Origin: an uncultured virus (IMG/VR IMGVR_UViG_3300031963_000026)
Taxonomy: Duplodnaviria; Heunggongvirae; Uroviricota; Caudoviricetes
IMG/VR virus record: IMGVR_UViG_3300031963_000026
Location: 62,001-126,000 of that record
Direction: 5' to 3' (one strand)
DNA: 64,000 nucleotides
Positions 20,881-62,914 of this stretch are shown here, piece after piece. The position numbers and the translations under genes were made by a program. The stretch's first letter is position 1, and each line of letters begins with the position of its first letter. A model generated the notes under the pieces. The model did no database searches. It saw only the letters and a list, made by a program, of their open reading frames with translations, and was not told the origin of the DNA.

Positions 20881-22567
20881 TTAAGGGTTGGGTTATTAGG
20901 TCGGAAACTACCATTTCAAAGTTTCCACCTTCGGGTATTAATCTAAATATTCCTACATTTGTGGGATAATGAGATTGATTTAAGAACGGAAAATCAACAC
21001 CATTATTTTCATTATCTATGAACCCATAATCATATATTTCTCTAAAACTTAAATTACCATTAGTGTTGGAATAATAAGCGTAGTTAGGAACCCCAAAAGT
21101 TCCCGTAGAGTCACTAGATTCAATGTAAGATGATAATTCCCTTATCTTCAATGGTTGATGTACCGAATAATAATAACCACTAGGATTTGTTGTTTGGGTT
21201 GAACTCACATCAAATAAATCAGGATTAAAATTTAATTTGTGAAAATAGTTTGATCTAACTATTTCAACCAATTCGGTGTTATTATATTCACAAATGTCAC
21301 CATGAATTATATCACCTTCAGATAACTCCGATAGATAATAAAAATCATAATTGGTACCACCCGTAGTAACTCTATATGAATTCAATGAAATATCTTCAAC
21401 ATTACTATTGTTGGTATCATCCCACCATCTTGACGTATTACCCGAAAAAATACTGTAACCCCATCCTTTCTTTAATCCAAAATTACCAAATCTTGGTTTA
21501 TTGAACCAACCCATATAACCTTTAAACGTTGTTGATAAGTATAATTCTGTAATCGGTATTTGATGATTATCCACTAGCCCTAAAGTATCAACATCGCTTT
21601 TCGGTGTAACCACATAAGAGTTTGTGAATTGTCGTGTAGATATTCTTCCAACCCCATTTGGTGTTAATGCGGAAAATTCATATTTCTGTTTTTTATTAAA
21701 CGGGTTCTCCTCAAATCCTGCCTTTGTTATTTGCATTTGAGAAGGTGTTTTTAATATTTTGTGTAATCTAATGTAATAATTAGATGTGGAATCTTGTGGG
21801 TTTTCAGAATTTATAACACGTTTGAAAGTTCCTTTAGCACCATTTGAGAATGTAAATCCTGTATAACCAACATCAATAATGTTGAAAACATATTTATCAC
21901 TACCATATTGTTCATTACCCAATAGATCCACTTGAAAAGTGCTAACGTCATCATAAGTAAGAGATAATTTAACCGACTCCCCAACACTTAATCCGTGTGG
22001 CATTGGACAATTAAACGAAATATATTGTAATCCATTGTAAATATTTGTTGTTATTTTGAATGGTAATCCATCCGAAATATTCCAAGTAACCAAGTCATCA
22101 TCACCAAAATAATGTGTTAAATTATAATTAGTTAAAGATGAAAAAACATAGGAAATATAAAAATTCCAATTATATGATGTCGCACTTACCGGTTTATATG
22201 TTACGTGTTGATTGTCTGTATCATATCTTATAACATCAAACTCTGAATGACTAGGATATCCACTCCATTGACCATTCAATAAGGATTGTGTTTGATTAAC
22301 ATAACCCAAACTATCCCTAAACGGGTTATACTTAGCATAACCAACCAAGTTGTTGTCGTATATAAACGAGAACTTATAAGTCGGTCTAAATATTGTGCAA
22401 GTTTGACGTTCATTATTATAAAGTTCTTGTAAATTAACATAAGTATTCCTGTCGGATTCATTAATCTCCCTCTGAGAACTTTCTAAATTTATCGGAACTA
22501 AGATATCTGTCTCGGGTGCCGATGCAAAGTTAGAACTTGGTTGTAATATGGTATAATTATTAATCAT
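20864..22567 (-). CDS. Hypothetical structural protein
   Basis: 567-aa ORF overlapping neighbours; CPMPHGLSVGESVKLS beta-repeat-like motif. Confidence 0.55.
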   Translation of the reverse strand: MINNYTILQPSSNFASAPETDILVPINLESSQREINESDRNTYVNLQELYNNERQTCTIFRPTYKFSFIYDNNLVGYAKYNPFRDSLGYVNQTQSLLNGQWSGYPSHSEFDVIRYDTDNQHVTYKPVSATSYNWNFYISYVFSSLTNYNLTHYFGDDDLVTWNISDGLPFKITTNIYNGLQYISFNCPMPHGLSVGESVKLSLTYDDVSTFQVDLLGNEQYGSDKYVFNIIDVGYTGFTFSNGAKGTFKRVINSENPQDSTSNYYIRLHKILKTPSQMQITKAGFEENPFNKKQKYEFSALTPNGVGRISTRQFTNSYVVTPKSDVDTLGLVDNHQIPITELYLSTTFKGYMGWFNKPRFGNFGLKKGWGYSIFSGNTSRWWDDTNNSNVEDISLNSYRVTTGGTNYDFYYLSELSEGDIIHGDICEYNNTELVEIVRSNYFHKLNFNPDLFDVSSTQTTNPSGYYYSVHQPLKIRELSSYIESSDSTGTFGVPNYAYYSNTNGNLSFREIYDYGFIDNENNGVDFPFLNQSHYPTNVGIFRLIPEGGNFEMVVSDLITQPLNDDCE

Positions 22568-43900: not shown

Positions 43901-44318
43901 CTAATAGTTCAGTGTCCTGTATATTACCCGTTGTTTGATACCTTTCAATAGTGTTATTACCTTGTGGGTCTTGGAAAACTCTACCTTTTTGAAAGTTTTG
44001 ATTAATTCCTTGACCTTTCAAACTATTTTTTCCTGTAATCTCATCGGTATATTCGTTACTAAAGTATCCTTTACCACCAGGATTTAAGAAATTAATTTGT
44101 GCGATTTTTACGTTTCGGATAGAATCGTCTAATGTGGAACCTTGAACAAGTTTTGTTCCCGGTATTACACGGGCTTCCAAATTAGCATACATGACAAGTT
44201 CTTCATGATTTACCAATCGTTCATCATAACTATTCCCATTAGTTCCAACCGTTTTATTAGGATCAATAATAACTATGTTGTCGTAGTCAAAATCTACTAG
44301 TATTTTTTTATCTGCCAT
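37929..44318 (-). CDS. Baseplate hub protein (gp27 / late control D-like) with large insertions
   Basis: C-terminal EITSLGNSMIQPTMYF...FNGPYHIQSVTHQIAPGQFTTQFKGVR; follows the LysM-like gene. Confidence 0.65.
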   Translation of the reverse strand: MADKKILVDFDYDNIVIIDPNKTVGTNGNSYDERLVNHEELVMYANLEARVIPGTKLVQGSTLDDSIRNVKIAQINFLNPGGKGYFSNEYTDEITGKNSLKGQGINQNFQKGRVFQDPQGNNTIERYQTTGNIQDTELLGIESITVTNDRSFTPVVNVRLIDVQGRALFEKGDNSPYAAFFNLPYPTFYLTMKGYYGKAIRYELILQNFEASFQGSTGDYTVNLKFVAYKYSVLAETSVAYLFALPHMYNTTYNISPPSNTQAQNAALFTNGNTNTDVNQVVTSRGLQKLKEVYQDYKSQRLVDENFPEMTLNQLQIKLEKLEENLLATFGKQDFSSLSDVDSYKKNLINYQNSVYSTDLNSWSSKYVDTSLFYYDNTGKKFYLYKENVRQSQQSMKDAEVILDKIVKEYNKLLSENKTLGSGGSATINNIKKLITGLNNDITVGTIIRDLGMIDEQKTLQERLKRIPTSAETENFRIELNKLKFSNTSIKINGIVNNQPDNTTDSEAGPVKLPQKVMYFEGEGTFVDLIQKLDTNATKVRTQIEDTLTSELQKKIEGNNGLGFKPTMRNVCAVLFASLEAFLRLLDDVHTKAWDVRFDPIRKSAILNNENKNNIDTTAAGDIPVYPWPQYFVETQNTTDGGKFELRYPGDPSVINQTQAYRYDIWPEVEFVEEYMKGLAVRDLEILQNPTSSTNEEKTINRVTLNAFDYPTTNRTYSITEVVSFIYEIYERVFTASFYDKLNTDVSNKKEVYKTIADFETENILKALANDNPELIKILKDFSIQPGNITDLMRHISNEGKGISWNQFIRGYYTNKYLVGKTDKPFQVLSGNTTLIETVLPNISAPSKKRVSDLLKVETGKGFTDLYPFVSDTFNTNSLQNGATDGLRFYKTTQTLVFNDRINYITNFATADPKNAPKPFTVLDYTAFKPIQYDSSGILTPLQIYATKLAGDRLATEGVWGDRVISMMNTPFFTNSILSGVQSERSNETYPYVQSAYLFLNSLPLATLREKFVSGGTYGEYIASVLNKYGSVQSLPYSWIIKYGSIWYRYKKQVNEGVDILDGVWKNFDYSANYDPTTSSTTRSYNTKTFVNGSRSDNTITLQNSITDTVTLTNITAGFYPKLINDFTYFTTGFDLLTGYTDSDYVGSTCGNQLEIRNNVDNNVNQPYNDGGVKFLNYTPYAITFDVNNNTSFPRKYQQSILVYPSFGSPVNEVSNFLFTQNNLSSYSNLNQYNQVENNPSIYNATTNFIWGSGPFGYFSSAAFTKPDYYEYIKKVKSDVNKQDAFSFETDFEYTRIDEMFATFSKEVLDDFETMFLDFCRPKSNFQNPYVSDVTFGNFQALMTDMMFIDRFNGAISNDVFIAKVANAQQDKLSNNCRLFLDQNVLFVNGNPSNFNRRLYGSFQTNKITDPIVFSPYVNGSLPTSSGTVTLEQSENSNPLAWKALKTYVGLYSSGTTVPYGFYYSSDGSYITDFFVDNNIAFTEANVITCAPLIKVYATQKYLANGVMTKDIFTTLIDDYVNSATELQTNIFTILFNQLGKQLPIVTVNSSQKINSIIDGNAPKYEIWDTMKTLDNKWIAGNDYKGRTLFQDVVFLDRANRDIGRTALIDIFSFKTLLNNNPLNMRVLDFFSKILSDNKFMMMPMGAYMNFWSKELIDADGQPNPENSQDLAQTLFGTHLNVDYRQARSKIVCIYGGKVSEHLDMRRSDDYRFGNDSFDITRTSENALLFQTPVNKNDYHLSNKVVGFNVDFGTRSQGMFYNINLSQTNSLATTEANKVIADTASAAGGKRGIAQSLSLYNLYKNRSYEVEITSLGNSMIQPTMYFNLKNVPMFNGPYHIQSVTHQIAPGQFTTQFKGVRIPIYSMPQLDKQITSLNQVVLSGLLSKLKKKREDENNQTPTTVNITNVGSNVTNKTSFTLGSNASCVNKLDPSYVSYQPSDALISELSFKQAARYISQATANEANRLLTFCTLYMSSSNTEKLTGYDYNFAGVTLDKKYGGNIPTYFKNQYFCLTNSNGNSLPFVSFASDSNNINMLVNYFEKPSKRISLNQSKGVLNYSGLTATDSALISFQVTDVWLLYWANNLTESQLLSFISRNETQYSSWAKNIYEGVVLAKKLGLVPSLNIKI

Positions 44319-44631
44319 AATAGAAGAAGTAATTATTCAATGCCGCGTTATAATCTTGTAGTGTCGCCACCAATGGAAATGGAACGTTTATTGTCGTACC
44401 ATCGGGTATTGACCATTCTAAACCACCAAATTGTGGATTTGCTTGTAATATTAACCAACCAAAAAAAGGTGTGCCATAATATTCCTGTGATATCTTATCC
44501 ATTCTACTTCTTCCTACACGATAAATGTATCTTTGATCCGAGTTTTTAGGTCTCAAAGGAACAAATGGGACAACGGTTTGACCACCATTTACTTCAAAAT
44601 CCACATATCTATTATAATATTGATAACTCAT
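44308..44631 (-). CDS. LysM-like baseplate protein (gp53 / P2 gpX-like)
   Basis: RMDKISQEYYGTPFFGWLILQANP...IPDGTTINVP. Confidence 0.8.
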   Translation of the reverse strand: MSYQYYNRYVDFEVNGGQTVVPFVPLRPKNSDQRYIYRVGRSRMDKISQEYYGTPFFGWLILQANPQFGGLEWSIPDGTTINVPFPLVATLQDYNAALNNYFFYYGR

Positions 44632-47600
44632 AGTTTAAACTTCTTTTTAAGATTGTAAGGATTATCAGTATCGGCATCATTATTAGAATTAAACAATTTA
44701 CTCAATCTTGTTTTATCATCACTACTTGGTGTAAAATCAGTCGTATATGAACAAGTCCTATCAACACCAACGTTTATACCAACAACATTTAGAATGTCTT
44801 TATTAATTGTGTTTTTATTATCATCAACAATACTTAATTCCGTATTATAAGCACTTTCAAAGACCGACTTCACCTTACCAAATTCATCATTTATTATTGT
44901 AAGTGAAATAGGATCTGTGATACCGTTAGTGATTGCACTCATAAAATTAGTATAATCATTAATATAAACACCACTCATTAACATATATTCTAACTTAGAT
45001 TCCGGAGTTGTAAACCCAAATTTAGTAACAGGGAATATTTCAGAGTCAAATTTGAAGCTTTGAGTCACATAAGGTGGGTAATCCCCATCAGTTAAAGTAG
45101 TTATAAATTGATTACAATAGGTTCCTATTGTTGTTAAGTCAGTAGTCATTACCGAAAGAGTTGAACCCGTTATTTTATATAACTTCGGTTCTCCCTTTTC
45201 AATGAAACCATCTCTTTCAGTTAATACATAATTCAATTTATCTATTGTAAATACATAGTCTTGTTCTAACGTATTCAATGATTGAATTGATGTGGTAAGT
45301 TTAGTTAAAAACGTAGGTGCATATCCACTAACATAGTTTATGTAGTTCTGTTTCAAATCTCTAACTACACTATTTTTAACATTTCTGTTTTGTTCTAATG
45401 TGGATATTTGAGATAATGATCCATTATTGATTTTACTTTGTAATTGTGAGAAGAAAGAAACATACCTGGATTGAATATTTACAGGTGATCCAAATAGATT
45501 AACATCTTGTGGTGACGTATATTGATTGAACTTACCTGTGTTATATTTTAGAACATTCGTAACGTTTTGTAATACCCCATAATTATAATTCTTAAGTGTA
45601 TCGTTTAAGAAATTATACACACCATTATAATAATTTTTAGACTGTGTAACAAACCCATCAAACACTTTAGTATATGATATATTACCATAAACCACGGTAG
45701 ATGTTCCCGACGTTGCCGCAGAGGTTGTAGTACTCTTAATTTCACCAATTGTTGCACCACCAAGTGATGTGGAAACCGGAGTTGCTTGTGAAACCGATGT
45801 GGTTGTCTCAGTTTCAGTTAAACCTAATGCACCAATAAATTGTTGATTGAATTGTTCTCTATCTTCCGTTTTTTCAGCTCTTTCATCATACATCTCAGTA
45901 TTTGCATAATAATTAAACGATAATGCGTTTTGTAATTTTTCAATTGGTTCTTTAAGTCCCGAACCACCAATAAAGTTAAAACTTAACGTAACATCACAAA
46001 TCATCGGTTGCATACCAATACCTTCGGGATTCAAATCAAAATTTTCAAATTTGAAACTTAAGTTTGTTGGAATAATTTTAGTATTATAGAAATCACCAAT
46101 TCTTAGCACCAACACAGGTGGGGCACCAAACGCGGTGTTTGTTGCAACATCCGTTACAGGTTTTCCATCCAAACCTATTGTTGGTATCGTATCACCCGGT
46201 CTTACACATTGATTTAAGAATGTCAATCTTGAATTTAATCCTTCAGGTGTCATTGAGTGAAACGTTGGATTAAAATATTTGATCTTGTCTTTGATTGAAT
46301 CAAAAACAACAGGATCAGTACTTTTCAATATATCAAAATAGTTACACTCAGATAATAAAGATCTAACAATTCTCTTACTAACATCATTTTTAATTTTTTG
46401 TTGTATGGTTGTAGTCGTTACAGGTTTTGGTGCTTCCAATGGTAATTGTCCTGTTGTTTGTTCTTGCTTAGGTGGTACCGCACTTATTTGTGGTGGTGGA
46501 GGTGCTTGAGGAATATCACCGGGAACATATTTAATATCCTTAATTGCAACTCTTCTACAAGCAGATGCTTGAACGGAAAATATCTTATTGTATGGTATAT
46601 TTTTAGTATCTAAGTCAGTACAATTATAACCCTGTGATTTAGTCCCTTTATTGAAACTATATAGTGTAGCACTTGATTCTTGCTCACCTCTCGCAGAACC
46701 CGAATCAATTTTCAATCTTCCCGAATCTATGTATGAACCCAAAACATTTTGGAAATAATCTTTAACACTATCAATTCTTCTTTTTGACAAATCAACGTTG
46801 TAACTTATTGTTGCAGGTGCGGACGCAGAACCAATTAAAGTAATTGTTATACTTTTAGCAGTCCCGTCATCCAAAACTTTCTTTATCTCGGGAACCAATT
46901 TATTACCAACAGTTGTGAAGTTATCAATAACAATATCATCAAAGAAATTTTGCATCTCAGTTTGTGTATTATTTCTTGAAGCAACTTCAATGAAGGTTGT
47001 TTCCTTACTTAATAAGAAATTATATTCAACATCATAAGCACTCGTTGTTTGAGTTAATCTCGTATTTGGATCGGGATAATCGTTGTAAAAATAAAAACCT
47101 AAGTTTTTAAACTTATCCCAATTTAATTCAGATGGTTTGGTTTGTTGAGGAATAATTGGTGCCGGTTGTGATTGATTAATCGGTTGTGTAGATTCCTGTG
47201 TTGCAGGATTTTGTGGTGTTGTTGTATTAACAATTGATTGAAAATATACCAAATCCGATGCCGGTATGGTATTATATGTTTGAGCCAATTCATACAAATC
47301 ATATTCTTTACAACCCGCGAAGAAAGAATCAACGATATTATCAGCAGTTTCTCTATCAGTATTCGCCAAAACCTTATTAACAATAAGATTTAATATAGAT
47401 GGGTGATCCACCACAATCTTAAATGATAATTGACCCGATCTTGATGTGTTTTTATAAGTATAAACAGGTTCAGGTCGTCCAATAAATGTATTTTCATTAA
47501 ACGACGGTCTTGAATCCTCACTAAATGTTAAACCATAAGGTGGGAACCACATTATTCTACCCCCATTAGGACCTCTCTCACAAGCAGGAAGGTCCGACAC

Positions 47601-49442
47601 TCTAAAACCTTCTTTATTTGACGTTCTCCAAGCCAAGTTTTCAATACTAAACATGTATTTGGTAACGTTTTTCTCAACTGCAGTTGGATTAACGTTGTTA
47701 CTTGTCGGAACAATATTCAAATTATATGTTGAAGTTATTACAGAATTAACAAATTGATAGATACTACCTTTTTGTTTCTGTAAATTTTCATAATTAATAT
47801 ATGGTTTGTCCTTAGCAAACACCCTACAATATTCTCTACCCGCTTCCGTTCCCGACGCATTAGTGTAAGATATCACCCTAGAACCCTTAGTTAATTCCTT
47901 ATACCCATCACTAAATACTTTAGATACTTGGTCAATTGCGTTACCAACGTGGTTAAGTCTCTTAGCACCATCGGGTTGTGAATCTATTAACCTTTGAGTA
48001 TCATCTAAAATACTACCCGGTCTAAATTCATAATTAGTTGATTTACCCGCATTGAATTTATCACTAATACTATTAAATGTTGGGTTATTTGTGGTATAAT
48101 CACCACCAGGTGCTACATTTTTACCCGCATTTTTACTATATTTCGGTGATACCCATGTGAACCCTCCTTGAATACCCCCCGCATCCTCATAAGATTTACC
48201 CGCAAAACCGTTTTGGATTTGTATATTATTTTCATAATTATTACCCAATACTTCAGGTCCATATACAGGAGCATTAACTTCTCTACCCGTTTCATCTTTT
48301 GGTATAGCACCCGGAGGTGATGTTAAAGATCCCGGATCTTGATCCTTTGAACCAACATAAAAGTTTCCTTTAGTTAAGTTTGATAAATTAAACGAAAATA
48401 TACCACCTACGGCATCATCACTAAACGCGGGTCTAAACTTGTTTTGTTCAATGTTAGATTGTAGTTGGAATTTTTGACCCGATCCTGTATTTTTTAAGAA
48501 TAAATCCGACGGTGTTCTACCTCTTGACCCTCTCGTTCCAAACGCCCCCGCAACCGCAGCACCAACAACCGTTTGTTGTGTTCTACCAAGGTTGTTCTGT
48601 GTCATATCCTCATCAAAATAATCACCCGGTATCGGTGATACAGGATAGTAAGTTCCTGCAATTCTGTTAAGAATATCCGCCATTTTACCAATAGCGTTTG
48701 ACGGAACAGTAATTGTCCAATCTTTTGATACTATAGGTCTTTTACCCGCCAAAACTTGAGCCACCTCAAATGGATCTCTAAGTGACTCTAAGAATGTAAG
48801 TCTTCCGATTGTTTCGGTTCTAACATTTTGATCAACCCTCGCCTTTAAATTAGCCTTTAACGCAACCCCAATATCAAACCTTCTTGGTTCAGAATCCAAA
48901 GATAATGTACCATCCGACCCTTGTGGATTACTTGAAAGTAAAACCGCATATGGTGAATATAATGAGGGTCTAAAACTAGGTGGACCCCAATACGGTGCCA
49001 AAACACCTTTAGACCTTTGTATTAAACCAATATTATACGGATTTTGAAAACCTCCGGGAGGTCCGTATTGGTTGATAATTGACGATGCTTTTTGATAGGA
49101 TATACTATAATTCTCAATAGCATCGATATATGGGGGAAATGGTCCATATTCCCCCTTATTAGGTCCCGAACTTACAACATTATTATAATTTATAGTTTTA
49201 TTAAAACCACCATTAGGACCAAATTCATTAATCTTATATAAATTATCAGAAAAAGGACTGTTATCTATTAAAACATCAGGAGAATCAATTACACTATAAT
49301 CCTGTAATTCGGTTGGGTATGTAACCGCACCACTTGGTGGTGTATATACGCCTGGTTTTCTGTAAGGTTTAAGATTCCTTACAATTAAACTTTTTCTAAT
49401 GATCTCGGTTGCATTAAACGATAACGGACTAGTTCCCATCAA
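44628..49442 (-). CDS. Tail tube initiator-like protein with inserted OmpA-like domain
   Basis: FIGRPEPVYTYKNTSRSGQLSF and PPVLVLRIGDF...PMICDVTLSF flank an OmpA_C-like segment. Confidence 0.6.
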   Translation of the reverse strand: MMGTSPLSFNATEIIRKSLIVRNLKPYRKPGVYTPPSGAVTYPTELQDYSVIDSPDVLIDNSPFSDNLYKINEFGPNGGFNKTINYNNVVSSGPNKGEYGPFPPYIDAIENYSISYQKASSIINQYGPPGGFQNPYNIGLIQRSKGVLAPYWGPPSFRPSLYSPYAVLLSSNPQGSDGTLSLDSEPRRFDIGVALKANLKARVDQNVRTETIGRLTFLESLRDPFEVAQVLAGKRPIVSKDWTITVPSNAIGKMADILNRIAGTYYPVSPIPGDYFDEDMTQNNLGRTQQTVVGAAVAGAFGTRGSRGRTPSDLFLKNTGSGQKFQLQSNIEQNKFRPAFSDDAVGGIFSFNLSNLTKGNFYVGSKDQDPGSLTSPPGAIPKDETGREVNAPVYGPEVLGNNYENNIQIQNGFAGKSYEDAGGIQGGFTWVSPKYSKNAGKNVAPGGDYTTNNPTFNSISDKFNAGKSTNYEFRPGSILDDTQRLIDSQPDGAKRLNHVGNAIDQVSKVFSDGYKELTKGSRVISYTNASGTEAGREYCRVFAKDKPYINYENLQKQKGSIYQFVNSVITSTYNLNIVPTSNNVNPTAVEKNVTKYMFSIENLAWRTSNKEGFRVSDLPACERGPNGGRIMWFPPYGLTFSEDSRPSFNENTFIGRPEPVYTYKNTSRSGQLSFKIVVDHPSILNLIVNKVLANTDRETADNIVDSFFAGCKEYDLYELAQTYNTIPASDLVYFQSIVNTTTPQNPATQESTQPINQSQPAPIIPQQTKPSELNWDKFKNLGFYFYNDYPDPNTRLTQTTSAYDVEYNFLLSKETTFIEVASRNNTQTEMQNFFDDIVIDNFTTVGNKLVPEIKKVLDDGTAKSITITLIGSASAPATISYNVDLSKRRIDSVKDYFQNVLGSYIDSGRLKIDSGSARGEQESSATLYSFNKGTKSQGYNCTDLDTKNIPYNKIFSVQASACRRVAIKDIKYVPGDIPQAPPPPQISAVPPKQEQTTGQLPLEAPKPVTTTTIQQKIKNDVSKRIVRSLLSECNYFDILKSTDPVVFDSIKDKIKYFNPTFHSMTPEGLNSRLTFLNQCVRPGDTIPTIGLDGKPVTDVATNTAFGAPPVLVLRIGDFYNTKIIPTNLSFKFENFDLNPEGIGMQPMICDVTLSFNFIGGSGLKEPIEKLQNALSFNYYANTEMYDERAEKTEDREQFNQQFIGALGLTETETTTSVSQATPVSTSLGGATIGEIKSTTTSAATSGTSTVVYGNISYTKVFDGFVTQSKNYYNGVYNFLNDTLKNYNYGVLQNVTNVLKYNTGKFNQYTSPQDVNLFGSPVNIQSRYVSFFSQLQSKINNGSLSQISTLEQNRNVKNSVVRDLKQNYINYVSGYAPTFLTKLTTSIQSLNTLEQDYVFTIDKLNYVLTERDGFIEKGEPKLYKITGSTLSVMTTDLTTIGTYCNQFITTLTDGDYPPYVTQSFKFDSEIFPVTKFGFTTPESKLEYMLMSGVYINDYTNFMSAITNGITDPISLTIINDEFGKVKSVFESAYNTELSIVDDNKNTINKDILNVVGINVGVDRTCSYTTDFTPSSDDKTRLSKLFNSNNDADTDNPYNLKKKFKL

Positions 49443-53641: not shown

Positions 53642-56600
53642 TTAGATATTTTCAAAAGACGCACCTGTTGGTGTAATTAAGAACTCGATATCAATGAATT
53701 CCAAAGATTTAGTTGGTTTAATATAAACTTTACCCACCAATTGGTTTCTATCCAAATCTTCGGGTGAAGAACTTACCGTAACTCTGAAATCATATAGACC
53801 TCTATCTCTTCTAATTGAATCCAAAATAGGATTAACCGCATCTAAGAAATCTTGTCTAACTTTCTCATCGTTTTGTTCAAACAACAATCTAACCGCAACC
53901 GCTGAAATTAATTTACGAGCTTGTAACAACAATCTTCTAACATTTAATCTGTCAAGTGCTGATTGTGCAACTTGTAGTGTTTTATTACCCCAAATTACAG
54001 TTCCAACATCTGAGAAAGTTGCGATAGGATTAATTCTTCCTTGATACAATGTATCTCTATCTGTTTGAGTTAGTTTTCTTCTTGCTTTTACCGAATTAAC
54101 CAAACCTCTAGTATAACCCGCCGATGCGAACCAAGGGAAAGCTATATTATCGGTAAGTGCTAAGTTTCTACAAACCTCACCTGTTGGTGGAAGATAAATT
54201 TGTGTGTTATTAACAGTATCTCTAACTAAAATCCAAGGATAATAAGTTGATGTATAGTTAGAATCAATACCAGTATCATCCAAAGTATTAACAGCTTCAG
54301 TCGGATCAATGAAATCTTGTGAATCCACCGTTGAAACCAATAGGTCAATATCGGGAGTTGTTGTGATATAGATCGAATCCGCTCTATCTTGCTCAACCAT
54401 CTCAATTGCGTTTTCAACTAAGTTACTGTTATTTACATAATCAATACCCGGAGTTGCGAATACGTTAATATTAGTTGCTTCAGGATTTGCGAATGTTTGA
54501 ATACCAATTAAGTAAGCATAATAGTCAGTTGTTGCATAATCGGTAGTGTTATTACCATATGTATATGGTCTAAACGCACCCCAACCAGTTGCCGATGGAT
54601 ATCTTGTATCACAAGTAGATGAAACACCTTTCTGATATCCTGTACCACCTAAAATAAATTCATCACCATTAGATCTTCTTTCTCTATAAATGTCCCAACC
54701 ATCAAAACCACCTTGAACTAAGAATGTGAATTTACGTGATTGTATTTTATAATATGGATTAGCGGGATCTGTTGGGTCTGTTGTGAAACTTGTTGATCCA
54801 ACTTCAAATGCCGATGTTCCTGAAGATAGGTATGAATTTGCGATAGTTACTACCGTAGCACCACTATCCATGTGGAAACCTTTAGTTTGATAAGTCCAAC
54901 TTGATGCCTCATTACAAATACTTGTTGGGTTTTGTTTTCCTTTATATTGGAACAAATCGGAGTCAATACCCAATTGTGATGAAAATCCTAAGTAAGTAGT
55001 TCTAACTTTATCACCACTTGATGTTGTTGAATTATCTGCCGAACCTGTAGCATTTCCAAATGGTGGGTTGTAAATAACTTCACCAGGGAAATCATACTTA
55101 GTTTTATATACAGGTTGTGGTGGTGTGTTTGATGTTGAAGAATAGGTTCTTTCAATTAAACCTTCAAAACCACAAGGAATGGCATCTACAGGTGCATCAT
55201 AATTAAGCTCCAACATAATAAACTTAGAGTTTAATTGGTATTCACCATCAGAGGTACCAACTTTAACACCAATGTAACTATTTTGACTAGGATCCATTGT
55301 ACAGTTTGTGAATTTCTCCAAAATAACAGGATTTGTGTCCGTATCGTAAAAATCCCTAACAGCAATATCAAAAGTTAAATTATTGAACGACATATTCAAT
55401 ATTGAAACTTTAACTTGTGTATTAGCAGCATTACCATCTGAAATTGTAATTACTTTGAAAAGTTCATACACCTGATTACCTCGAAGTTCTGAAACCACCC
55501 AAGGAGAACTTGGTGTTTGGTAAGGATCTAAGAAATAAGCCATAGTTCCTGTTGTGTTAGCAGCTCTCAACCCCGGTAACTGAATTAAACTTGTGCTTAG
55601 TCCTCTAATGTAACCTTTATTATAACCAAAATTCAACAAGTTAGGATAAATTTCTTCTACGAAAAGAGGAACTACTGTTCTGTCTTTACCAAAATTATCT
55701 TTACCCAATACTTTACTCAAATAGTTAGTTCCTGTTTGTTGCATTGACGCAGTTAGTGTGAATGGTGTGGAATTTGAAGTTGTTAAACCTGAAATTTGGA
55801 ATTCTGTGTATGGATTTTTAGTTACACCGCTATTTACATCTACCAAATTAACATTTGATTGAGCACTTACAACAAAATCGGGTCCCGCAACTCCGGAACC
55901 GTAATTAGAAACACCTCTTGATCTCAATGTTGCAACCACCATATTATTATATGCTGAATATGCAGTACCTGACCAACCAAAAGTTTGTCCCGAAATCGTT
56001 CCCGTGTATGATGTGTAAGATCCAGCACTTAAACCTCCCGACAATGAACTTAAGAAAGTTACAAAAGAACGACCAACATACGCATTGCCCGAACTGATAT
56101 TAAACAATGAATAATACCAAGGATCATTTAAATAAGATGTGTAATCCTGAGATGATGCGTTTGTGTTATAAACACCTAAAACGTTTGTTGAAGCCGTGTA
56201 AGCACCTGATGTATATGTTGTGTTAGTTGCCGATGGTAAACTACCAAAAATATATGATGTTGCACCTGAATTAACTTGAACAACCGCAGCGGTATCATTA
56301 CCAAAAACCGTTAATAATAAATTTTGTAAATCTGTTGTAAATGTTGAAGTACTACCATCTATTTTAGTATATGACGCATTTACGTCTGTATATGCTGACA
56401 ATCCGTTTGTTAAAATATTTACAGTTCCCGTTGAGTTAGCACTAAATGTAACTGTGAATCCAACAGGTGTATTACCTGTAATACCAATTGTTGATGTATT
56501 TGGATTTGCAATCGTTTTGATAGTCCAAGATGGTCCTGCATCATATCCTGATAGACCTAATATTCTTGATACAAATAACTGATTTGATTGTTGTAAATAT

Positions 56601-56848
56601 GATTTTGCAATATATGCCATTTCATATTTAGGAATTTGTGTGTTCACAAATTTTTCTGTTGAAGTTCCACCGAAATATGTTTCATACTCATCAAAACTAG
56701 TGATAAAAATTGGTTCGAAAGCGGGACCTTTTAGTGCCTCACCAACCAAACCCAATGTTGTAACACCAACACTTTGAGCAACAAAACTTAAATCCCTTTC
56801 TGAGGTATAAACCCCAGGTGAAACGAATACCTTATTTGCTGTAGCCAT
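53642..56848 (-). CDS. Tail sheath protein (T4 gp18-like) with insertions
   Basis: SPGVYTSERDLS, YYPW, PWFASAGYTRG, RINPI, WGNKTL, LNVRRLL and PTKSLEFIDIEF motifs. Confidence 0.95.
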   Translation of the reverse strand: MATANKVFVSPGVYTSERDLSFVAQSVGVTTLGLVGEALKGPAFEPIFITSFDEYETYFGGTSTEKFVNTQIPKYEMAYIAKSYLQQSNQLFVSRILGLSGYDAGPSWTIKTIANPNTSTIGITGNTPVGFTVTFSANSTGTVNILTNGLSAYTDVNASYTKIDGSTSTFTTDLQNLLLTVFGNDTAAVVQVNSGATSYIFGSLPSATNTTYTSGAYTASTNVLGVYNTNASSQDYTSYLNDPWYYSLFNISSGNAYVGRSFVTFLSSLSGGLSAGSYTSYTGTISGQTFGWSGTAYSAYNNMVVATLRSRGVSNYGSGVAGPDFVVSAQSNVNLVDVNSGVTKNPYTEFQISGLTTSNSTPFTLTASMQQTGTNYLSKVLGKDNFGKDRTVVPLFVEEIYPNLLNFGYNKGYIRGLSTSLIQLPGLRAANTTGTMAYFLDPYQTPSSPWVVSELRGNQVYELFKVITISDGNAANTQVKVSILNMSFNNLTFDIAVRDFYDTDTNPVILEKFTNCTMDPSQNSYIGVKVGTSDGEYQLNSKFIMLELNYDAPVDAIPCGFEGLIERTYSSTSNTPPQPVYKTKYDFPGEVIYNPPFGNATGSADNSTTSSGDKVRTTYLGFSSQLGIDSDLFQYKGKQNPTSICNEASSWTYQTKGFHMDSGATVVTIANSYLSSGTSAFEVGSTSFTTDPTDPANPYYKIQSRKFTFLVQGGFDGWDIYRERRSNGDEFILGGTGYQKGVSSTCDTRYPSATGWGAFRPYTYGNNTTDYATTDYYAYLIGIQTFANPEATNINVFATPGIDYVNNSNLVENAIEMVEQDRADSIYITTTPDIDLLVSTVDSQDFIDPTEAVNTLDDTGIDSNYTSTYYPWILVRDTVNNTQIYLPPTGEVCRNLALTDNIAFPWFASAGYTRGLVNSVKARRKLTQTDRDTLYQGRINPIATFSDVGTVIWGNKTLQVAQSALDRLNVRRLLLQARKLISAVAVRLLFEQNDEKVRQDFLDAVNPILDSIRRDRGLYDFRVTVSSSPEDLDRNQLVGKVYIKPTKSLEFIDIEFLITPTGASFENI

Positions 56849-56970
56849 TATAATAAAAGTTTTTTAATTTATTTACCATAAATACTTTACTTTTAACCAA
56901 AAACCGAAGATAATATAAAGTTCATTATCTTTATTTCTACTAAAAATATCTTTTTTTGATATTTAACGAT

Positions 56971-57129
56971 ATGGATACCGAGAAAGTCAAAAACGTTAAA
57001 ATAAGTAAGACCTCACATGATTTATTAAAATCATATTGTGACGACCGTGGATTAAAAATTTATAAGTTTTTGGAAAAACTAATTAAAGATAATTGTAAAT
57101 CTAAAAAAGATTTATACGGTGACAATTAA
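56971..57129 (+). CDS. Ribbon-helix-helix DNA-binding protein (52 aa); not in the ORF track
   Basis: MDTEKVKNVKISKTSHDLLKSYCDDRGLKIYKFLEKLIKDNCKSKKDLYGDN: beta strand with alternating pattern, helix, G turn, helix. Confidence 0.7.
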   Translation: MDTEKVKNVKISKTSHDLLKSYCDDRGLKIYKFLEKLIKDNCKSKKDLYGDN

Positions 57130-58720: not shown

Positions 58721-60475
58721 ATGAATGAAATAAAAATCAATCAACCGCTTGAAATCAGAGCACTTGATGTCCTTGATAGTTATTCAGGGGCAAACAATTA
58801 TATTATTAAATTAAAAATCAAAAAAGATACCAATAAAAAGTTCTATCCAACAAGAAACCAAGCGGAATATATCTTGGCTTATAAAGATTCCGTTCCAAAA
58901 GTTGCAAGAAAATGGGTGGAACTTGATATGTATTTTGCCAATAAATTTGCTGATGAAAAATTATTAACCGAAGTTCCAACCAAAATATGGGTTGAGAAGT
59001 TATTGGTTGAAAAAGATACGTCTTATCACATTTGGGGTAAGTATTTTGAACACGAGGAATTATATGATTTTTGGATTCCTAAATCAGGAATTATTAAAGA
59101 TACTTCTGTTAAGGTTGTTATTGACTATGAAAAGTATTCACATAGACCGCCTCTTTCACACCAAAAAGAAGGTATTGAGAAATTAGTTGGAAATAAAAAA
59201 TACATTCTTGCCGATGATATGGGTTTGGGGAAGACAACACAAACAATTATTGCTGCGTTGGAGACAGGGGTTGAGAAGGTTTTAATTATTAGTCCTGCAT
59301 CATTGAAGATCAACTGGCAACGTGAGATTGAAAATTACACGGATAGATCGGTTGTAATTATTGATGGGAAGAAATGGGAATCCGCCGATTTTGTTATCGT
59401 AAATTATGACATTTTGAAAAACTTTCATGATCCAAAAAATCGGGAAGAAAGTCAAATATTGAATGAAGGATTTGGGTTGGTCATTATTGATGAAGCACAT
59501 TATATTCAAAACACACAAGCACAAAGAACAAAACTTATTAACGATTTTGTTAAAAAAATTGATAGATTATGGTTATTAACCGGAACACCAATGACATCAA
59601 GACCAATAAACTATTATAACTTATTAAGTTTGATTGATTCACCCGTTGCAATGAATTGGATGGCTTATGTTATGAGATATTGTGAAGGTTATCAATTCAA
59701 GGTAGGGAATAGAAAAGTTTGGAATGTTAATGGTGCGTCAAATCTTGAAGAATTAAGAGATAGAACATCTCGTCAAGTATTAAGAAGATTAAAAACCGAC
59801 GTATTGGATCTTCCTGAAAAAATCATCACACCCGTTTATCTTAAATTGAAATCTTATGAATATGAACGATTGATGGGTGAATATTATGATTGGTATGATA
59901 ACTCTAAAGAATCTACCTCATTAACCGTACAATTCACTAAATTAATGAAGGTTAGACAGGTTATATCGGAAGAAAAAGTAAAATCAACAATTGAATTATG
60001 TGAAAACATTATTGAACAAGGAAAGAAAGTAATTGTTTTTACCAATTTTACCAACTCGTTAAACTCTATCTTATCTCACTTCGGAAAAAAAGCGGTTGGT
60101 CTTGATGGTAGTATGCCTCAAGGTATGAGACAAGATAACGTTGATAAATTCCAAAATGATGAAAATATTATGGTGTTTGTTGGGAACATTAAAGCAGCTG
60201 GGGTTGGTATCACATTAACATCTGCGGAAGTTGTTGTTATGAATGACCTGTCATTTGTACCGTCAGATCACTCACAAGCCGAGGATCGTGCTTATCGTTA
60301 TGGTCAAAAAAATAACGTTTTGGTATATTATCCTATTTTTGATAACACGATTGAGGGTATTATTTATAACATTCTACAAAAGAAGAAAAACATCTTTGAA
60401 ACCGTTATGGGGGATAATTTAAGTAAGGGTGATATGGTGGAGGAAATCATGAATATGATTAACACAAAAAGATAA
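58721..60475 (+). CDS. SNF2-family helicase (SMARCAL1/HARP-like)
   Basis: LADDMGLGKT, DEAH, LTGTP, AAGVGITLT and QAEDRAYRYGQ motifs; ATG at 58721 is more likely than the TTG at 58691. Confidence 0.9.
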   Translation: MNEIKINQPLEIRALDVLDSYSGANNYIIKLKIKKDTNKKFYPTRNQAEYILAYKDSVPKVARKWVELDMYFANKFADEKLLTEVPTKIWVEKLLVEKDTSYHIWGKYFEHEELYDFWIPKSGIIKDTSVKVVIDYEKYSHRPPLSHQKEGIEKLVGNKKYILADDMGLGKTTQTIIAALETGVEKVLIISPASLKINWQREIENYTDRSVVIIDGKKWESADFVIVNYDILKNFHDPKNREESQILNEGFGLVIIDEAHYIQNTQAQRTKLINDFVKKIDRLWLLTGTPMTSRPINYYNLLSLIDSPVAMNWMAYVMRYCEGYQFKVGNRKVWNVNGASNLEELRDRTSRQVLRRLKTDVLDLPEKIITPVYLKLKSYEYERLMGEYYDWYDNSKESTSLTVQFTKLMKVRQVISEEKVKSTIELCENIIEQGKKVIVFTNFTNSLNSILSHFGKKAVGLDGSMPQGMRQDNVDKFQNDENIMVFVGNIKAAGVGITLTSAEVVVMNDLSFVPSDHSQAEDRAYRYGQKNNVLVYYPIFDNTIEGIIYNILQKKKNIFETVMGDNLSKGDMVEEIMNMINTKR

Positions 60476-60491
60476 TGATATATTTATCATT

Positions 60492-60815
60492 ATGAAAGTT
60501 AAAGTAACAGAAGATAAGTTATACCCTGTTTTCAAAAAATTTATGGAAACTCAGTTTAAGAATTATGAATGGATCGAAGATAATTATGATGTTGTTTTGT
60601 TTATGAGTCCCGGAGGAGATTCTTATTTGGCGTTGAGTAAAGATAAAACTTTATTAATTTATGCTAAAACCGCAAAAAAAATCCTTAATTACCTTCCTAT
60701 GGAACGATCTATGTTCCTATCACTTATGACTAGATGGGTAGGAGAGACCTTAAATATTAAGGGTATAACCCTCTCGCAGTTTCAACAGTTGGTTTTGATT
60801 AGCCTTAATAGATAA
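60492..60815 (+). CDS. Tandem paralog family, copy 1
   Basis: Conserved start MKVKVTEDKLYPVFKKFMETQFKNYEW; own TATTTAT motif. Confidence 0.85.
   Translation: MKVKVTEDKLYPVFKKFMETQFKNYEWIEDNYDVVLFMSPGGDSYLALSKDKTLLIYAKTAKKILNYLPMERSMFLSLMTRWVGETLNIKGITLSQFQQLVLISLNR
60738..60803. CRISPR. Degenerate repeat + ~30-nt spacer-like segment (unit 1)
   Basis: GTAGGAGAGACCTTAAATATTAAGGGTATAACCCTC (36 nt) then TCGCAGTTTCAACAGTTGGTTTTGATTAGC. No second repeat is recognisable, so the spacer end is set by analogy. Confidence 0.3.
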
Positions 60816-60834
60816 TAATAATATATTTATCATT

Positions 60835-61176
60835 ATGAAAGTTAAAGTAACAGAAGAAAAGTTATATCCATTATTCAAAAAATTCATGGAAACTCAGTTT
60901 AAGAAATATGAATGGAGAAAAGGTAAATTTGATTCCATTTGGTTCATAGACCCTGAAGGATATGGTCACATGGGATTGTTGAAAAATAAAGAGTTATTAA
61001 TCTATCGTGAGATTAAAGATCAAATTCTTCGCTACATTCCTATGGAAAAATCTATGTTACAAACACTTATGAGTAAGTGGGTAGAAGAAACCCTTCAAGT
61101 TGAAGGGTTAACCGTTCCCACTGTACCCCAATTTACAATACCGCGTTTTTATGATGGTGATACCTTTCCATTATAA
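60835..61176 (+). CDS. Tandem paralog family, copy 2
   Basis: Same N-terminus; ends DGDTFPL. Confidence 0.85.
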   Translation: MKVKVTEEKLYPLFKKFMETQFKKYEWRKGKFDSIWFIDPEGYGHMGLLKNKELLIYREIKDQILRYIPMEKSMLQTLMSKWVEETLQVEGLTVPTVPQFTIPRFYDGDTFPL

Positions 61177-61188
61177 GAATATTTATCA
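61081..61188. CRISPR. Repeat-spacer-degenerate repeat (unit 2)
   Basis: GTAGAAGAAACCCTTCAAGTTGAAGGGTTAACCGTT (palindromic core AACCCTTCAA/TTGAAGGGTT), 36 unique nt, then GATGGTGATACCTTTCCATTATAAG... Confidence 0.45.
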
Positions 61189-61190
61189 AT

Positions 61191-61526
61191 ATGAAAGTTA
61201 AAGTAACAGAAGATAAGTTATACCCTGTTTTCAAAAAATTTATGGAAACTCAGTTTAAGAATTATGAATGGAGAAAAGATCGGAATGATGACATTTGGTT
61301 TTCAGATCCTAAAGGGTATGGTCATTTGGGATTGGTACACATTAAGGATTTATTGATCTATCGTGATATTAGAAAAAAAATACTTCGTTATCTTCCTATG
61401 GAACAATCTATGTTAAACTCACTTATGAGTAAGTGGGTAGAAGAGACCCTTCAAGTTAAGGGGTTAGCCCCCACTTTGGCAAGACACGAATCCTATCCAT
61501 TAGTTGATGGATCCTTTCCATTATAA
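61191..61526 (+). CDS. Tandem paralog family, copy 3
   Basis: Same N-terminus; ends VDGSFPL. Confidence 0.85.
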   Translation: MKVKVTEDKLYPVFKKFMETQFKNYEWRKDRNDDIWFSDPKGYGHLGLVHIKDLLIYRDIRKKILRYLPMEQSMLNSLMSKWVEETLQVKGLAPTLARHESYPLVDGSFPL

Positions 61527-61538
61527 GAATATTTATCA
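61437..61538. CRISPR. Repeat-spacer-degenerate repeat (unit 3)
   Basis: 36-nt repeat 61437-61472, 30-nt spacer ACTTTGGCAAGACACGAATCCTATCCATTA, then GTTGATGGATCCTTTCCATTATAAG... Confidence 0.55.
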
Positions 61539-61540
61539 TT

Positions 61541-61849
61541 ATGAAAGTTAAAGTAACAGAAGAAAAGTTATATCCAGTATTCAAAAAATTTATGGAAACT
61601 CAGTTTAAGAATTATGAATGGACAAAAGATGAATATGGGTGTATTGATTTTGTGGATCCTGAAGGATTTGGTCATTTGGAATTGGAAAACAATGAAGATT
61701 TATGGGTTTATGGTGATATTAAAGATCAAATTCTTCGCTACATTCCTATGGAAGAATATATGTTAGAATCACTTATGGGTAGATGGGTTGGAGATACCTT
61801 TCAAATTGAGGGTATAAACACCAGTATAGAATCGTTTCCAAATTTTTAA
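61541..61849 (+). CDS. Tandem paralog family, copy 4
   Basis: Stops at a TAA inside the spacer; the same frame continues IVENAFPL* to 61876. Confidence 0.85.
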   Translation: MKVKVTEEKLYPVFKKFMETQFKNYEWTKDEYGCIDFVDPEGFGHLELENNEDLWVYGDIKDQILRYIPMEEYMLESLMGRWVGDTFQIEGINTSIESFPNF

Positions 61850-61888
61850 ATCGTTGAAAATGCCTTTCCATTGTAAGAATATTTATAT
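61787..61888. CRISPR. Repeat-spacer-degenerate repeat (unit 4), type VI-B-like
   Basis: GTTGGAGATACCTTTCAAATTGAGGGTATAAACACC (36 nt), 30-nt spacer AGTATAGAATCGTTTCCAAATTTTTAAATC, then GTTGAAAATGCCTTTCCATTGTAAG... Confidence 0.65.
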
Positions 61889-61891
61889 GGT

Positions 61892-62182
61892 ATGAAAGTC
61901 AAGGTAACAGAAGAAAAGTTATATCCAGTTTTCAAAAAATTCATGGAAACTCAGTTTAAGAAATATGAATGGAGAAAAGATGAACTTGGGACTATTTGGT
62001 TTATGGATCCTGAAGGATTTGGTGATCTGGAATTGGGAGATAAAAATTTATGGGTTCATCGTGATATTAAAAATAAAATTCTTCGTTATCTTCCTATGGA
62101 AGAATCTATGTTAGACTCGCTTATATCTAGATGGGTTGGAGATACTTTTCAAATTGAGGGTATAAACATCCTCGAGATGTGA
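61892..62182 (+). CDS. Tandem paralog family, copy 5
   Basis: Stops at a TGA inside the spacer; the same frame continues LPW*EEVGDTFPL* to 62224. Confidence 0.85.
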   Translation: MKVKVTEEKLYPVFKKFMETQFKKYEWRKDELGTIWFMDPEGFGDLELGDKNLWVHRDIKNKILRYLPMEESMLDSLISRWVGDTFQIEGINILEM

Positions 62183-62236
62183 TTGCCATGGTAGGAGGAA
62201 GTTGGTGATACCTTTCCATTATAAGAATATTTATAT
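62135..62236. CRISPR. Repeat-spacer-degenerate repeat (unit 5), type VI-B-like
   Basis: GTTGGAGATACTTTTCAAATTGAGGGTATAAACATC (36 nt), 30-nt spacer CTCGAGATGTGATTGCCATGGTAGGAGGAA, then GTTGGTGATACCTTTCCATTATAAG... Confidence 0.65.
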
Positions 62237-62239
62237 GGT

Positions 62240-62914
62240 ATGAAACTACTTGAGAGAAAAATACATTTACTAGAATCTTTATTGGATGGTAAGAATATTT
62301 TTGAAGCCAATTATAAAGCACAAAAATTAGATTATAACTTAAATTCATTATCAGATTTTATCGGTAAAGATACTATGGATGTTCATTATAATGGACATTA
62401 TAAAACTTACCTTAAAAAATTAAATGAACTTCTACCGGATGAAAAAATGATCCCAATAGAAGATTTAATTAAAAAAATATCAAGGTATAACAAGAAAATT
62501 AGGAATAATGCTGGTGGTGTATATAACCACCAACTATTTTGGAAAATGTTATCACCAAACAAAACAAAACCATCTAAAGAACTATTAGAAAAAATTAACA
62601 AAGATTTTGGTTCTTATGATGAGTTCAAACAAAAGTTTGAAAAAGTGGCATTAGACAGGTTTGGTTCAGGATGGGTTTGGTTAATTATGGGTAAAAGTGG
62701 TAGGTTACGTGTCGTATCTACACCCAATCAGGACAACCCCGAGATGAATATTATTAGAAATGGAGGAAAAATTTTATTGGGGCTTGACATTTGGGAACAT
62801 GCGTATTATCTTAGCTACCGAAATGAGAGAGACCGATATATCAAAAACTTTTGGAAAGTGGTAAATTGGGATTTCGTAAGTTCAGAATATCAGAAACTTA
62901 AACCAACTAAATAA
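62240..62914 (+). CDS. sodA: Superoxide dismutase, Mn-type signature, with N-terminal extension
   Basis: HYNGHYKTY, NNAGGVYNHQLFW, FGSGWVWL, TPNQDNP and DIWEHAYY motifs. Confidence 0.9.
   Translation: MKLLERKIHLLESLLDGKNIFEANYKAQKLDYNLNSLSDFIGKDTMDVHYNGHYKTYLKKLNELLPDEKMIPIEDLIKKISRYNKKIRNNAGGVYNHQLFWKMLSPNKTKPSKELLEKINKDFGSYDEFKQKFEKVALDRFGSGWVWLIMGKSGRLRVVSTPNQDNPEMNIIRNGGKILLGLDIWEHAYYLSYRNERDRYIKNFWKVVNWDFVSSEYQKLKPTK

Follow-up and report, generated by a model that had tools for sequence, protein, structure and literature searches.

The window analysed here is a stretch of 64,000 nucleotides (nt) from an uncultured phage, bases 62001-126000 of the 129-kb IMG/VR record G000, which is estimated to be 43% complete; the near-identical 165-kb IMG/VR record G001, with an estimated completeness of 55%, covers the largest share of the genome. 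By its Pfam families (gp32, gp25, baseplate, sheath and UvsX-like genes) the phage is a T4-like myovirus, and its G+C content (GC) is 0.33. It encodes a tail protein with SprB repeats (Pfam), which points to a host among the Bacteroidota. Between the genes for an SNF2 helicase and an Fe/Mn superoxide dismutase, the window carries five tandem paralogues of a small gene (60492-62182; period about 350 bp). All but the first end in the element considered here, a short variable segment held between a 36-nt repeat and a truncated copy of that repeat. Three further copies form a second array at G000 11914-12896, and a ninth lies in the part of G001 that is absent from G000 (L015-L017).

The layout is the same in eight of the nine copies: a conserved gene body, then a block of 36 nt (reading, in the best copies, GTTGGAGAnACCTTTCAAATTGAGGGTATAAACACC), a segment unrelated to its counterparts, and a conserved flank. 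The segments of this phage are 30 nt long, apart from one of 31 nt and one of 36 nt. The flank, which follows each of copies 2-5, is 25 nt long (GTTGrnGAnnCCTTTCCATTrTAAG), and its opening 16-23 nt duplicate the beginning of that block, making it a truncated second repeat. Repeat plus segment measure 66 nt in copies 3-5, and the 23 nt that recur in the flank of the ninth copy lie exactly 66 nt further on. The flank motif TATAAGAATA is found at six places in 129 kb, five of them within these units. The features of the window are as follows, repeats and segments being listed without a strand.

60492..60815, plus strand: paralogue copy 1, 107 amino acids, with a repeat-like coding end and neither segment nor truncated repeat (an 'empty' copy)
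60835..61176, plus strand: paralogue copy 2, 113 amino acids, reading through the segment to FPL and a stop
61081..61116: full 36-nt repeat of copy 2, in the diverged form GTAGAAGAAACCCTTCAAGTTGAAGGGTTAACCGTT
61117..61152: variable segment of copy 2, 36 nt, its core found in IMG/VR only in the phage's own copies
61153..61177: truncated second repeat of copy 2 with the stop, GATGGTGATACCTTTCCATTATAAG
61191..61526, plus strand: paralogue copy 3, 111 amino acids, reading through the segment
61437..61472: full 36-nt repeat of copy 3
61473..61502: variable segment of copy 3, 30 nt, open in frame, no foreign match
61503..61527: truncated second repeat of copy 3
61541..61849, plus strand: paralogue copy 4, 102 amino acids, ended by a TAA inside the segment
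61787..61822: full 36-nt repeat of copy 4, GTTGGAGATACCTTTCAAATTGAGGGTATAAACACC, which a model built from host type VI-B repeats scores highest in the whole window
61823..61852: variable segment of copy 4, 30 nt, GC 0.23, with the in-frame TAA
61853..61877: truncated second repeat of copy 4, untranslated and still conserved
61892..62182, plus strand: paralogue copy 5, 96 amino acids, ended by a TGA inside the segment
62135..62170: full 36-nt repeat of copy 5, scoring 13.1 bits on the minus and 10.5 bits on the plus strand in the same model
62171..62200: variable segment of copy 5, 30 nt, GC 0.50, containing a TGA and a TAG in frame, without a foreign match
62201..62225: truncated second repeat of copy 5, untranslated and still conserved, followed by the superoxide dismutase gene

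Read from the start of the repeat, copy 3 gives VEETLQVKGLAPTLARHESYPLVDGSFPL and a stop, copy 4 gives VGDTFQIEGINTSIESFPNF, a stop, IVENAFPL and a second stop, and copy 5 gives VGDTFQIEGINILEM, a stop, LPW, a stop, EEVGDTFPL and a final stop; these are exactly the translations quoted in a preliminary description of this DNA. That description had placed the in-frame stops inside the segments only, and among the five paralogues of the window the segments of copies 4 and 5 are indeed the only places where they occur. Outside the window, copy B of the second array and the ninth copy also carry stops in their segments, and copy A of the second array is shifted out of frame by its 31-nt segment. 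The flank was said to be conserved even where it is no longer translated, as is seen in copies 4 and 5 and in two of the three copies of the second array (one behind a stop, one behind the 31-nt frameshift). The same four window segments, stops included, recur in six independent IMG/VR contigs, and the stops are therefore not the assembly errors that might have undone the proposal. Counting both phage lineages described below, 13 of the 36 distinct segments are open and in frame (copy 3 being counted as open) and 23 contain a stop or a frame shift, which bears out the earlier claim that the segments escape coding constraint. A further suggestion, that frames open at a 2-nt offset betray fragments of foreign mRNA in sense orientation, fails: all 36 segments have at least one stop-free frame on both strands, and the number of such frames per segment (2.08 and 1.92 on the two strands) shows no asymmetry.

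The segments differ far more than the genes that carry them. Among 13 array-bearing paralogues the synonymous difference (pS) is 0.25, and 0.20 between copies 4 and 5, so a 30-mer drifting neutrally would be expected to remain about 75% alike. The mean pairwise identity of the eight segments of this phage is 28% and the maximum 45%; judged from these sequences, the divergence exceeds chance or drift and is a wholesale difference. The gene bodies are under moderate purifying selection (ratio of nonsynonymous to synonymous change, dN/dS, 0.52), with a nonsynonymous difference (pN) of 0.02-0.09 over the first 24 codons. If only the flanks evolved in concert, the 30-nt island would be expected to be swept along with them. 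Segment length is nearly constant, at 29 nt (three), 30 nt (11), 31 nt (two) and 36 nt (one) in lineage 1, and at 29 nt (five), 30 nt (five), 31 nt (four), 32 nt (three) and 33 nt (one) in lineage 2, where 12 of the 18 lengths are not multiples of three. The GC of the segments is 0.426 in lineage 1, a value reached by none of 20,000 resamples, against 0.332 for the genome, and 0.436 in lineage 2, against 0.29 for the surrounding DNA. Distinct segments of near-constant length between 36-nt repeats, together with a hairpin fold, make up the generic layout of a CRISPR array (short palindromic repeats, clustered and regularly interspaced).

Related phages carry one, two or four units on the same gene family, and metagenome homologues (alignment A2) show the same pattern with different tails; one homologue lies on a contig of 292 kb, the full genome being put at about 300 kb. 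Proteins P0007 and P0018 have two units each, and in P0010, P0014 and P0021 a second full repeat is read in another frame. The contig L052 holds one array of four spacers behind a gene, in the order repeat, 29 nt, repeat, 30 nt, repeat, 29 nt, variant repeat, 30 nt, truncated repeat, and a second behind another gene (repeat, 31 nt, repeat, 29 nt, truncated repeat). In both arrays translation ends within the second repeat, and the later repeats are still perfect, near-identical over 36 nt; this persistence beyond the end of translation agrees with the proposal of the preliminary description that the flank is kept for a role in DNA or RNA. In the variant repeat of the four-spacer array (L052:1083-1118) the 5' 20 nt are swapped for the GC-rich ATTGATACCGCCCCCCAGAT, which still pairs with the unchanged 3' arm GGAGGGTATAAACACC, and the stem resembles the Rurimicrobium-type host repeat introduced below. 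It may have arisen by exchange with an array of a host, or else be a variant with compensating changes.

A second lineage is represented by L123 (G774:1-14000; GC 0.29), in which 18 repeat-segment-repeat units lie within 14 kb, compared with nine units in the phage of the window. The records G775-G777 also carry this lineage. The 5' repeat motif has 49 matches in L123, the small protein is only about 24% identical, and behind the truncated repeat there are stop codons in each of the three frames.

Variation at a single locus was seen in lake metagenome contigs, in which the copy 4 repeat gives way to 27-36 novel letters before the repeat resumes, with four different inserts. A special terminal repeat (…CAAATTGAAATAAGATC) marks another locus, to which gene 3 of L052 and P0018 belong. 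They share the spacer beside this terminal repeat (it encodes QCFHHRKTKT) and differ in the gene-proximal spacer, and three other relatives have single, differing spacers. As far as one informative pair of sequences goes, this suggests the pattern left by polarised insertion at the gene-proximal repeat. Two copies of the small gene, at 60492-60815 of the window and at L052:1188-1516, have neither segment nor second repeat; beyond a diverged stretch that resembles the repeat, ordinary coding sequence continues into their C-termini. They are candidate 'empty sites', the state of the gene before a spacer was inserted.

The cores of six spacers, including the window segments of copies 2, 3 and 5, were scanned in IMG/VR. 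Four of them matched only contigs of the phage itself and one had no match. The sixth, spacer 2 of an L052 array (L052:988-1017), is identical in 30 of 30 letters to L114:1498-1527, and the identity does not extend past either border of the spacer. L114, a contig of 4.6 kb from a different phage (GC 0.43), has no similarity beyond the spacer, and the matching letters belong to the coding strand of a 189-amino-acid open reading frame (ORF) that is flanked by a head-maturation-protease gene and another late-type gene. The rule reported for the flanks of targets of one Cas13b is a base other than C on the 5' side and NAN or NNA on the 3' side (10.1101/092577). In mRNA sense the protospacer is flanked by U (5') and GGA (3'), which fits that rule, as do about one third of random sites. 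Seven segments tested for self-targeting had no match in G000 at up to seven mismatches, and none of the 18 lineage-2 segments had a match among the sequences searched at up to four mismatches. A comparison of the four-spacer array with 401 genomes, for protospacers in Chitinophagales, returned noise (best E value 0.003 per genome), the top match (L106) being a lone chance one. The preliminary description had taken the segments for acquired foreign DNA; with a GC of 0.43 against 0.33 and the 30/30 match in a related array, we regard them as likely captured foreign spacers.

A loose scan, requiring two copies of a 10-mer of the phage repeat 60-70 nt apart, led to genuine Bacteroidota arrays in Rurimicrobium arvi and in metagenome-assembled genomes of Saprospiraceae, Prolixibacteraceae, Prevotellaceae and other groups. 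Their repeats are 36 nt long with a period of 66, and Cas13b (563-930 bits) and Csx27 adjoin the array in all four loci examined. A further Cas13b locus, in G522, was found independently of the repeat and has a similar one. Type VI-B systems, to which Cas13b belongs, are described as having a 36-nt repeat with GUUG/CAAC ends, a 30-nt protospacer, and a CRISPR RNA (crRNA) with the spacer at its 5' and the repeat at its 3' end (10.1101/092577). Six host repeats were used for comparison and for a covariance model, five of them found through the 10-mer of the phage repeat. On the minus strand (antisense to the small genes), three near-consensus phage repeats agree with them at 22-26 of 36 positions (61-72%). 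On the gene strand the same three agree at 18-24 of 36, and outside the search 10-mer at only 11-14 of 26. The diverged copy 2 repeat agrees at 16-21 of 36 on either strand. The ends of the phage repeat, GTTG...CACC on the plus and GGTG...CAAC on the minus strand, have seven of the eight expected letters, with one pair broken.

When both strands of the 64-kb window were searched with the covariance model, the best hit was exactly the copy 4 repeat on the minus strand (19.8 bits, E 0.05). In related loci, eight of nine full canonical repeats were hit over their full length at 14-19.8 bits, the ninth (L051 1747) was matched in part, and the model gave no hit on the L052 variant repeat or on either repeat of L053. 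Type II-C was also considered as the closer class. The 5' half of II-C repeats of Chitinophagales agrees with the phage gene strand at 15 of 22 positions (L130), but the whole repeat agrees at only 19 of 36 (L125) and eight of ten sampled II-C arrays have periods of 74-77 nt, and the assignment was rejected. Cas9 is present in 87 of 301 Chitinophagales sampled; Cas13b was found in two of 401 Bacteroidota genomes sampled, one of them the genome from which the search started.

From these sequence comparisons it seems probable that the variable segments are CRISPR-type spacers, borne by a gene and set between 36-nt repeats of the type VI-B (Cas13b) class of Bacteroidota. The whole would then probably be a phage-borne CRISPR memory without cas genes, aimed at rival phages. 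That a host Cas13b reads the spacers as guides is possible but somewhat doubtful. What is new here is the repeat class, which has not been reported on viruses, and the spread of mini-arrays over many copies of a small gene.

Such a system could work as follows. During infection of a host with an adaptation module, the integrase (Cas1-Cas2) would take the repeat at the end of the gene for an array repeat and act on it in trans, inserting pieces of about 30 nt of other DNA in the cell and duplicating the repeat, with entry at the gene-proximal repeat. A II-C adaptation module is proposed because in Flavobacterium columnare the II-C Cas1-Cas2 fills a cas1-less VI-B array in trans (PMC8092290) and because II-C is common in the likely host order. 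Phage genomes that survive would keep the new unit, and a host effector, with Cas13b the most likely one, might take up its transcripts. The phage would gain by excluding rival phages through their transcripts; alternatively or in addition, many repeat-bearing RNAs could act as harmless guides that dilute the host's own. The altered C-terminus of the small protein, whether extended, stopped or frameshifted, would be a by-product. In its fullest and more speculative form, which we hold only tentatively, the proposal is that one family of large freshwater phages maintains a distributed, self-renewing, cas-less memory, consisting of dozens of Cas13b-class arrays of one to four spacers welded to a small gene, refilled by host integrases and read by a host RNA-guided RNase against the late transcripts of rivals, or else serving to blind that enzyme.

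Several findings weigh against the assignment to type VI-B arrays. The 20-nt core of the repeat had no match in 185,579 species genomes, which thus yielded no bacterium with an array of this very repeat; the host repeats nearest to it share just 61-72% of its positions, whereas known viral mini-arrays have the same repeat as their host (PMC11656645). The E values of the covariance model are modest and rough (0.03-0.05), and lineage 2 scores weakly on both strands. No Cas or reverse-transcriptase family was detected by Pfam, which has no model detecting Cas13b, among 173 phage ORFs covering at most 55% of the genome, and a Cas13b model found none in G000, G001 and G774-G777, records that are 30-71% complete. 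Only one of the six spacer cores has a foreign match, and none of the three from the window. Across the six near-identical contigs, no spacer turnover was seen at the four window sites. A segment of 30 nt is a multiple of three and the repeat encodes a conserved 12-residue motif, as would a translated cassette. The first repeat is not visibly constrained beyond coding, because its synonymous sites are no more conserved than those of the gene body. Finally, the sequence evidence on which strand acts conflicts and appears nearly evenly divided.

The strand decides how far the arrays could be read as guides or would merely occupy the effector. In favour of the minus strand, its loop (AAUUUG) is identical to that of two host repeats and U-rich, in keeping with the poly-U loop described for VI-B repeats (10.1101/092577). 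The host-repeat model scores it about 9 bits above the plus strand, and a full repeat follows every spacer, as the 5' spacer and 3' repeat of a Cas13b crRNA require. The minus-strand crRNA of the one traced spacer would pair with the mRNA of its target. The gene strand is certainly transcribed, and it folds better (-7.9 against -4.9 kcal/mol). Among 32 distinct repeats it has 40 G.U-type pairs against five on the minus strand, a count that is a weak guide to the strand because host VI-B repeats themselves carry C.A mismatches in sense. Its 3' 13 letters agree at 12 of 13 positions with five host repeats, which were found through that very block, and its direction from leader to trailer agrees with that of host arrays, in which the decayed repeats lie far from cas13b. 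A scan for promoters and terminators found 11 promoter-like sites against 12.4 in shuffles and is uninformative on the strand.

Several of these points would suit a decoy or scar, in which the repeat at the end of the gene mimics the Cas13b repeat and, present in many transcribed copies, loads the effector with useless guides as an RNA anti-CRISPR, the spacers and half repeats being by-products of a host integrase that takes this repeat for an array and having no role as guides. A lone spacer on the plus strand has only half a repeat after it, from which no VI-B crRNA could be made (10.1101/092577), and extraneous crRNA from a first repeat is reported to deplete the real crRNAs and lower Cas13b defence (PMC13187072). 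The high copy number (nine and 18 units), the better fold and the larger G.U count of the plus strand, and the spacer polarity, with new spacers at the gene end as in host arrays read from leader to trailer, all fit as well. Yet the plus-strand loop is A-rich (CAAAUU), and only the minus strand reproduces the poly-U loop of VI-B repeats. The higher model score and the orientation of the traced spacer also favour the minus strand, and the G.U count carries little weight for the reason given. We consider a decoy unlikely, though it is the strongest competitor of guide-bearing VI-B arrays.

Improbable, and weaker than the decoy, is a translated cassette of 12 constant and 10 variable residues that is reshuffled by recombination between paralogues, its likeness to CRISPR being convergent or incidental and without any Cas. 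The repeat does encode the conserved motif VGETFQIEGINT with a period of 22 codons, exactly 30 nt are found in 11 of the 17 lineage-1 segments, and about 18 of 28 distinct protein tails in alignment A2 read through. Recombination of a half repeat with a full repeat between copies could also yield two-unit arrays, but it cannot make new segment sequences. A cassette kept for its protein is further at odds with the broken frames in 23 of the 36 segments and the irregular lengths in lineage 2, with the two perfect repeats and spacers that follow the end of translation in L052, with a segment GC foreign to the genome, and with a spacer that agrees 30/30 with another phage's gene.

Ordinary divergence of paralogues, with a disordered C-terminal tail drifting fast and a flank conserved as the promoter or start region of the next gene, is very improbable. 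The flank runs into a conserved start region (ATATTTATCATTATG) that is also found upstream of copy 1, and both of its strands have -10-like hexamers. However, the segments are alike only at random level against a difference of just 0.25 at synonymous sites, the flank opens with 16-23 nt already present 66 nt upstream, the flank motif is nearly confined to these units, and promoter-like sites show no excess over shuffles; multi-unit arrays and the foreign match would be left unexplained. A diversity-generating retroelement, in which a reverse transcriptase rewrites the segments from a template repeat, is, for the sequence available, almost certainly not involved: lying at the 3' end of a gene and ahead of conserved sequence, the segments bring to mind variable regions that have a homing signal downstream, but no second copy of seven segments exists in G000 at up to seven mismatches, there is no reverse-transcriptase family among the 173 ORFs, and the differences involve all four bases rather than adenine only, so that the outcome named earlier as fatal to acquisition of foreign DNA was not seen. 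Two other known elements were rejected, T4-type promoter-early stem-loop cassettes, since the genes flanked here are paralogous and what varies is an insert of 30 nt rather than a gene, and integron attC sites, whose conserved ends do not fit and near which no integrase gene lies.

If the arrays work with a host Cas13b, several consequences follow. Phages would be exploiting an RNA-targeting, dormancy-inducing defence against each other; a host integrase could write into phage DNA; and a protein-coding gene could serve at the same time as an array's leader and its first repeat. In the fullest form of the proposal, this would be the first type VI component on a virus, and CRISPR adaptation would be writing into phage coding sequence. 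The phage family is in addition a natural system for studying the recognition of repeats in trans. For most CRISPR types, mini-arrays or mimics of the repeat have been described on viruses (PMC10651486, PMC11656645), and a search of the literature for type VI-like arrays in phages found none, within a limited paper collection.

Of the words sampled from the stretch, half or more are present in each of 18 sequencing runs, which come from at least 13 studies. Runs holding the stretch are labelled lake and freshwater metagenome, and several others fungus metagenome; the listed runs include no RNA datasets. The phage family is abundant in lakes. The small protein, with a core of about 95 amino acids, has no Pfam or PHROG family. 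A structural model of the copy 3 protein shows a small alpha/beta domain (mean predicted local distance difference test score, pLDDT, 86), for which searches for relatives gave Foldseek E values above 0.3 and VIA-align Z scores of at most 4.1, the level of noise. A permissive Rfam scan of 60300-62400 gave no CRISPR-DR family and only two chance hits, and when the region and the arrays were compared by BLAST with 50,697 cultured-phage records, there was no match, or only noise at E 0.3-0.9.

Directly after the last unit lies a complete Fe/Mn superoxide dismutase gene (window 62240-62914; Sod_Fe_N and Sod_Fe_C). Elsewhere in the genome, thymidylate synthase is split over two ORFs (L056:1422-3515, G000 21422-23515) that match profile positions 105-265 and 2-108, and a 237-amino-acid ORF without a family separates the halves, giving the look of an intron or homing-element insertion. 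The phage also encodes proteins of a regulatory or modifying type: a sigma-70-type factor (L057:16176-16979, G000 56176-56979), a cREC_REC (cyclic-phosphate processing receiver) domain protein (L056:6565-6954) and an ART-PolyVal ADP-ribosyltransferase domain protein (L055:1291-1770). Three giant ORFs on the minus strand of the window, of 2129, 1612 and 1604 amino acids (37929-44318, 22560-27398 and 44628-49442), have either no Pfam match or only a faint one to OmpA.

Among known systems, the closest are type VI-B arrays with Cas13b and Csx27. They share with the phage units the 36-nt repeat, spacers of about 30 nt, the 66-nt period, a spacer derived from a phage gene, the GTTG start, a central hairpin at the same positions, the 3' block GAGGGTATAAACA.C, and intact repeats at one end with decayed ones at the other. 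They differ in that the phage repeat is 61-72% identical and departs in one of the eight terminal GUUG/CAAC letters, that neither cas13b nor csx27 is seen beside the phage arrays or elsewhere in the available phage DNA, and that the phage arrays are scattered, have one to four spacers, and have as their first repeat the last 12 codons of a small gene. The decayed terminal repeat of the phage keeps its 5' half (gene strand), whereas those of the host array L103, the clearer of two, keep the 3' half. In the trailer of that array (L103:9344-9590) the 5' part of the repeat is replaced and the spacing is 85-124 nt; these units recall the 'long direct repeat' crRNAs of Bergeyella zoohelcum (10.1101/092577).

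Virus-borne mini-arrays without cas genes are known from the archaeal portogloboviruses SPV1 and SPV2 and from many phages, where they are linked to interviral conflict (PMC11656645). They likewise have few spacers, a spacer matching another virus, and a presumed use of the host's effector. Their repeats are identical to those of the host and their targets are mostly related viruses (PMC11656645). For the phage described here no host with an identical repeat was found, and the host may lie outside the collection; the single traced target (n=1) is an unrelated phage. Its arrays, moreover, are fused to coding genes and multiplied, to nine and, in the second lineage, 18. In the available text of surveys of viruses (PMC10651486) and plasmids (PMC11656645), type VI is absent. 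Racrs, or solitary repeat units, are also phage-encoded repeat mimics present in several copies that could occupy a host effector (PMC10651486). They are solitary, intergenic and placed behind a promoter, whereas the phage repeats lie inside ORFs, with spacers and a partner 66 nt away; a lone, diverged, repeat-like end occurs in copy 1 and in gene 2 of L052. The Racr survey, which masked ORFs, reports all CRISPR types except type VI in the available text (PMC10651486), and it would have missed the phage arrays because their repeats lie in ORFs.

The pairing of II-C and VI-B in F. columnare offers the nearest parallel for the supply of spacers, with an array that lacks cas1 and cas2, an integrase borrowed from another system, a length ruler and a GTTG end (PMC8092290). 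The difference is that here the array filled in trans would be located on phage DNA.

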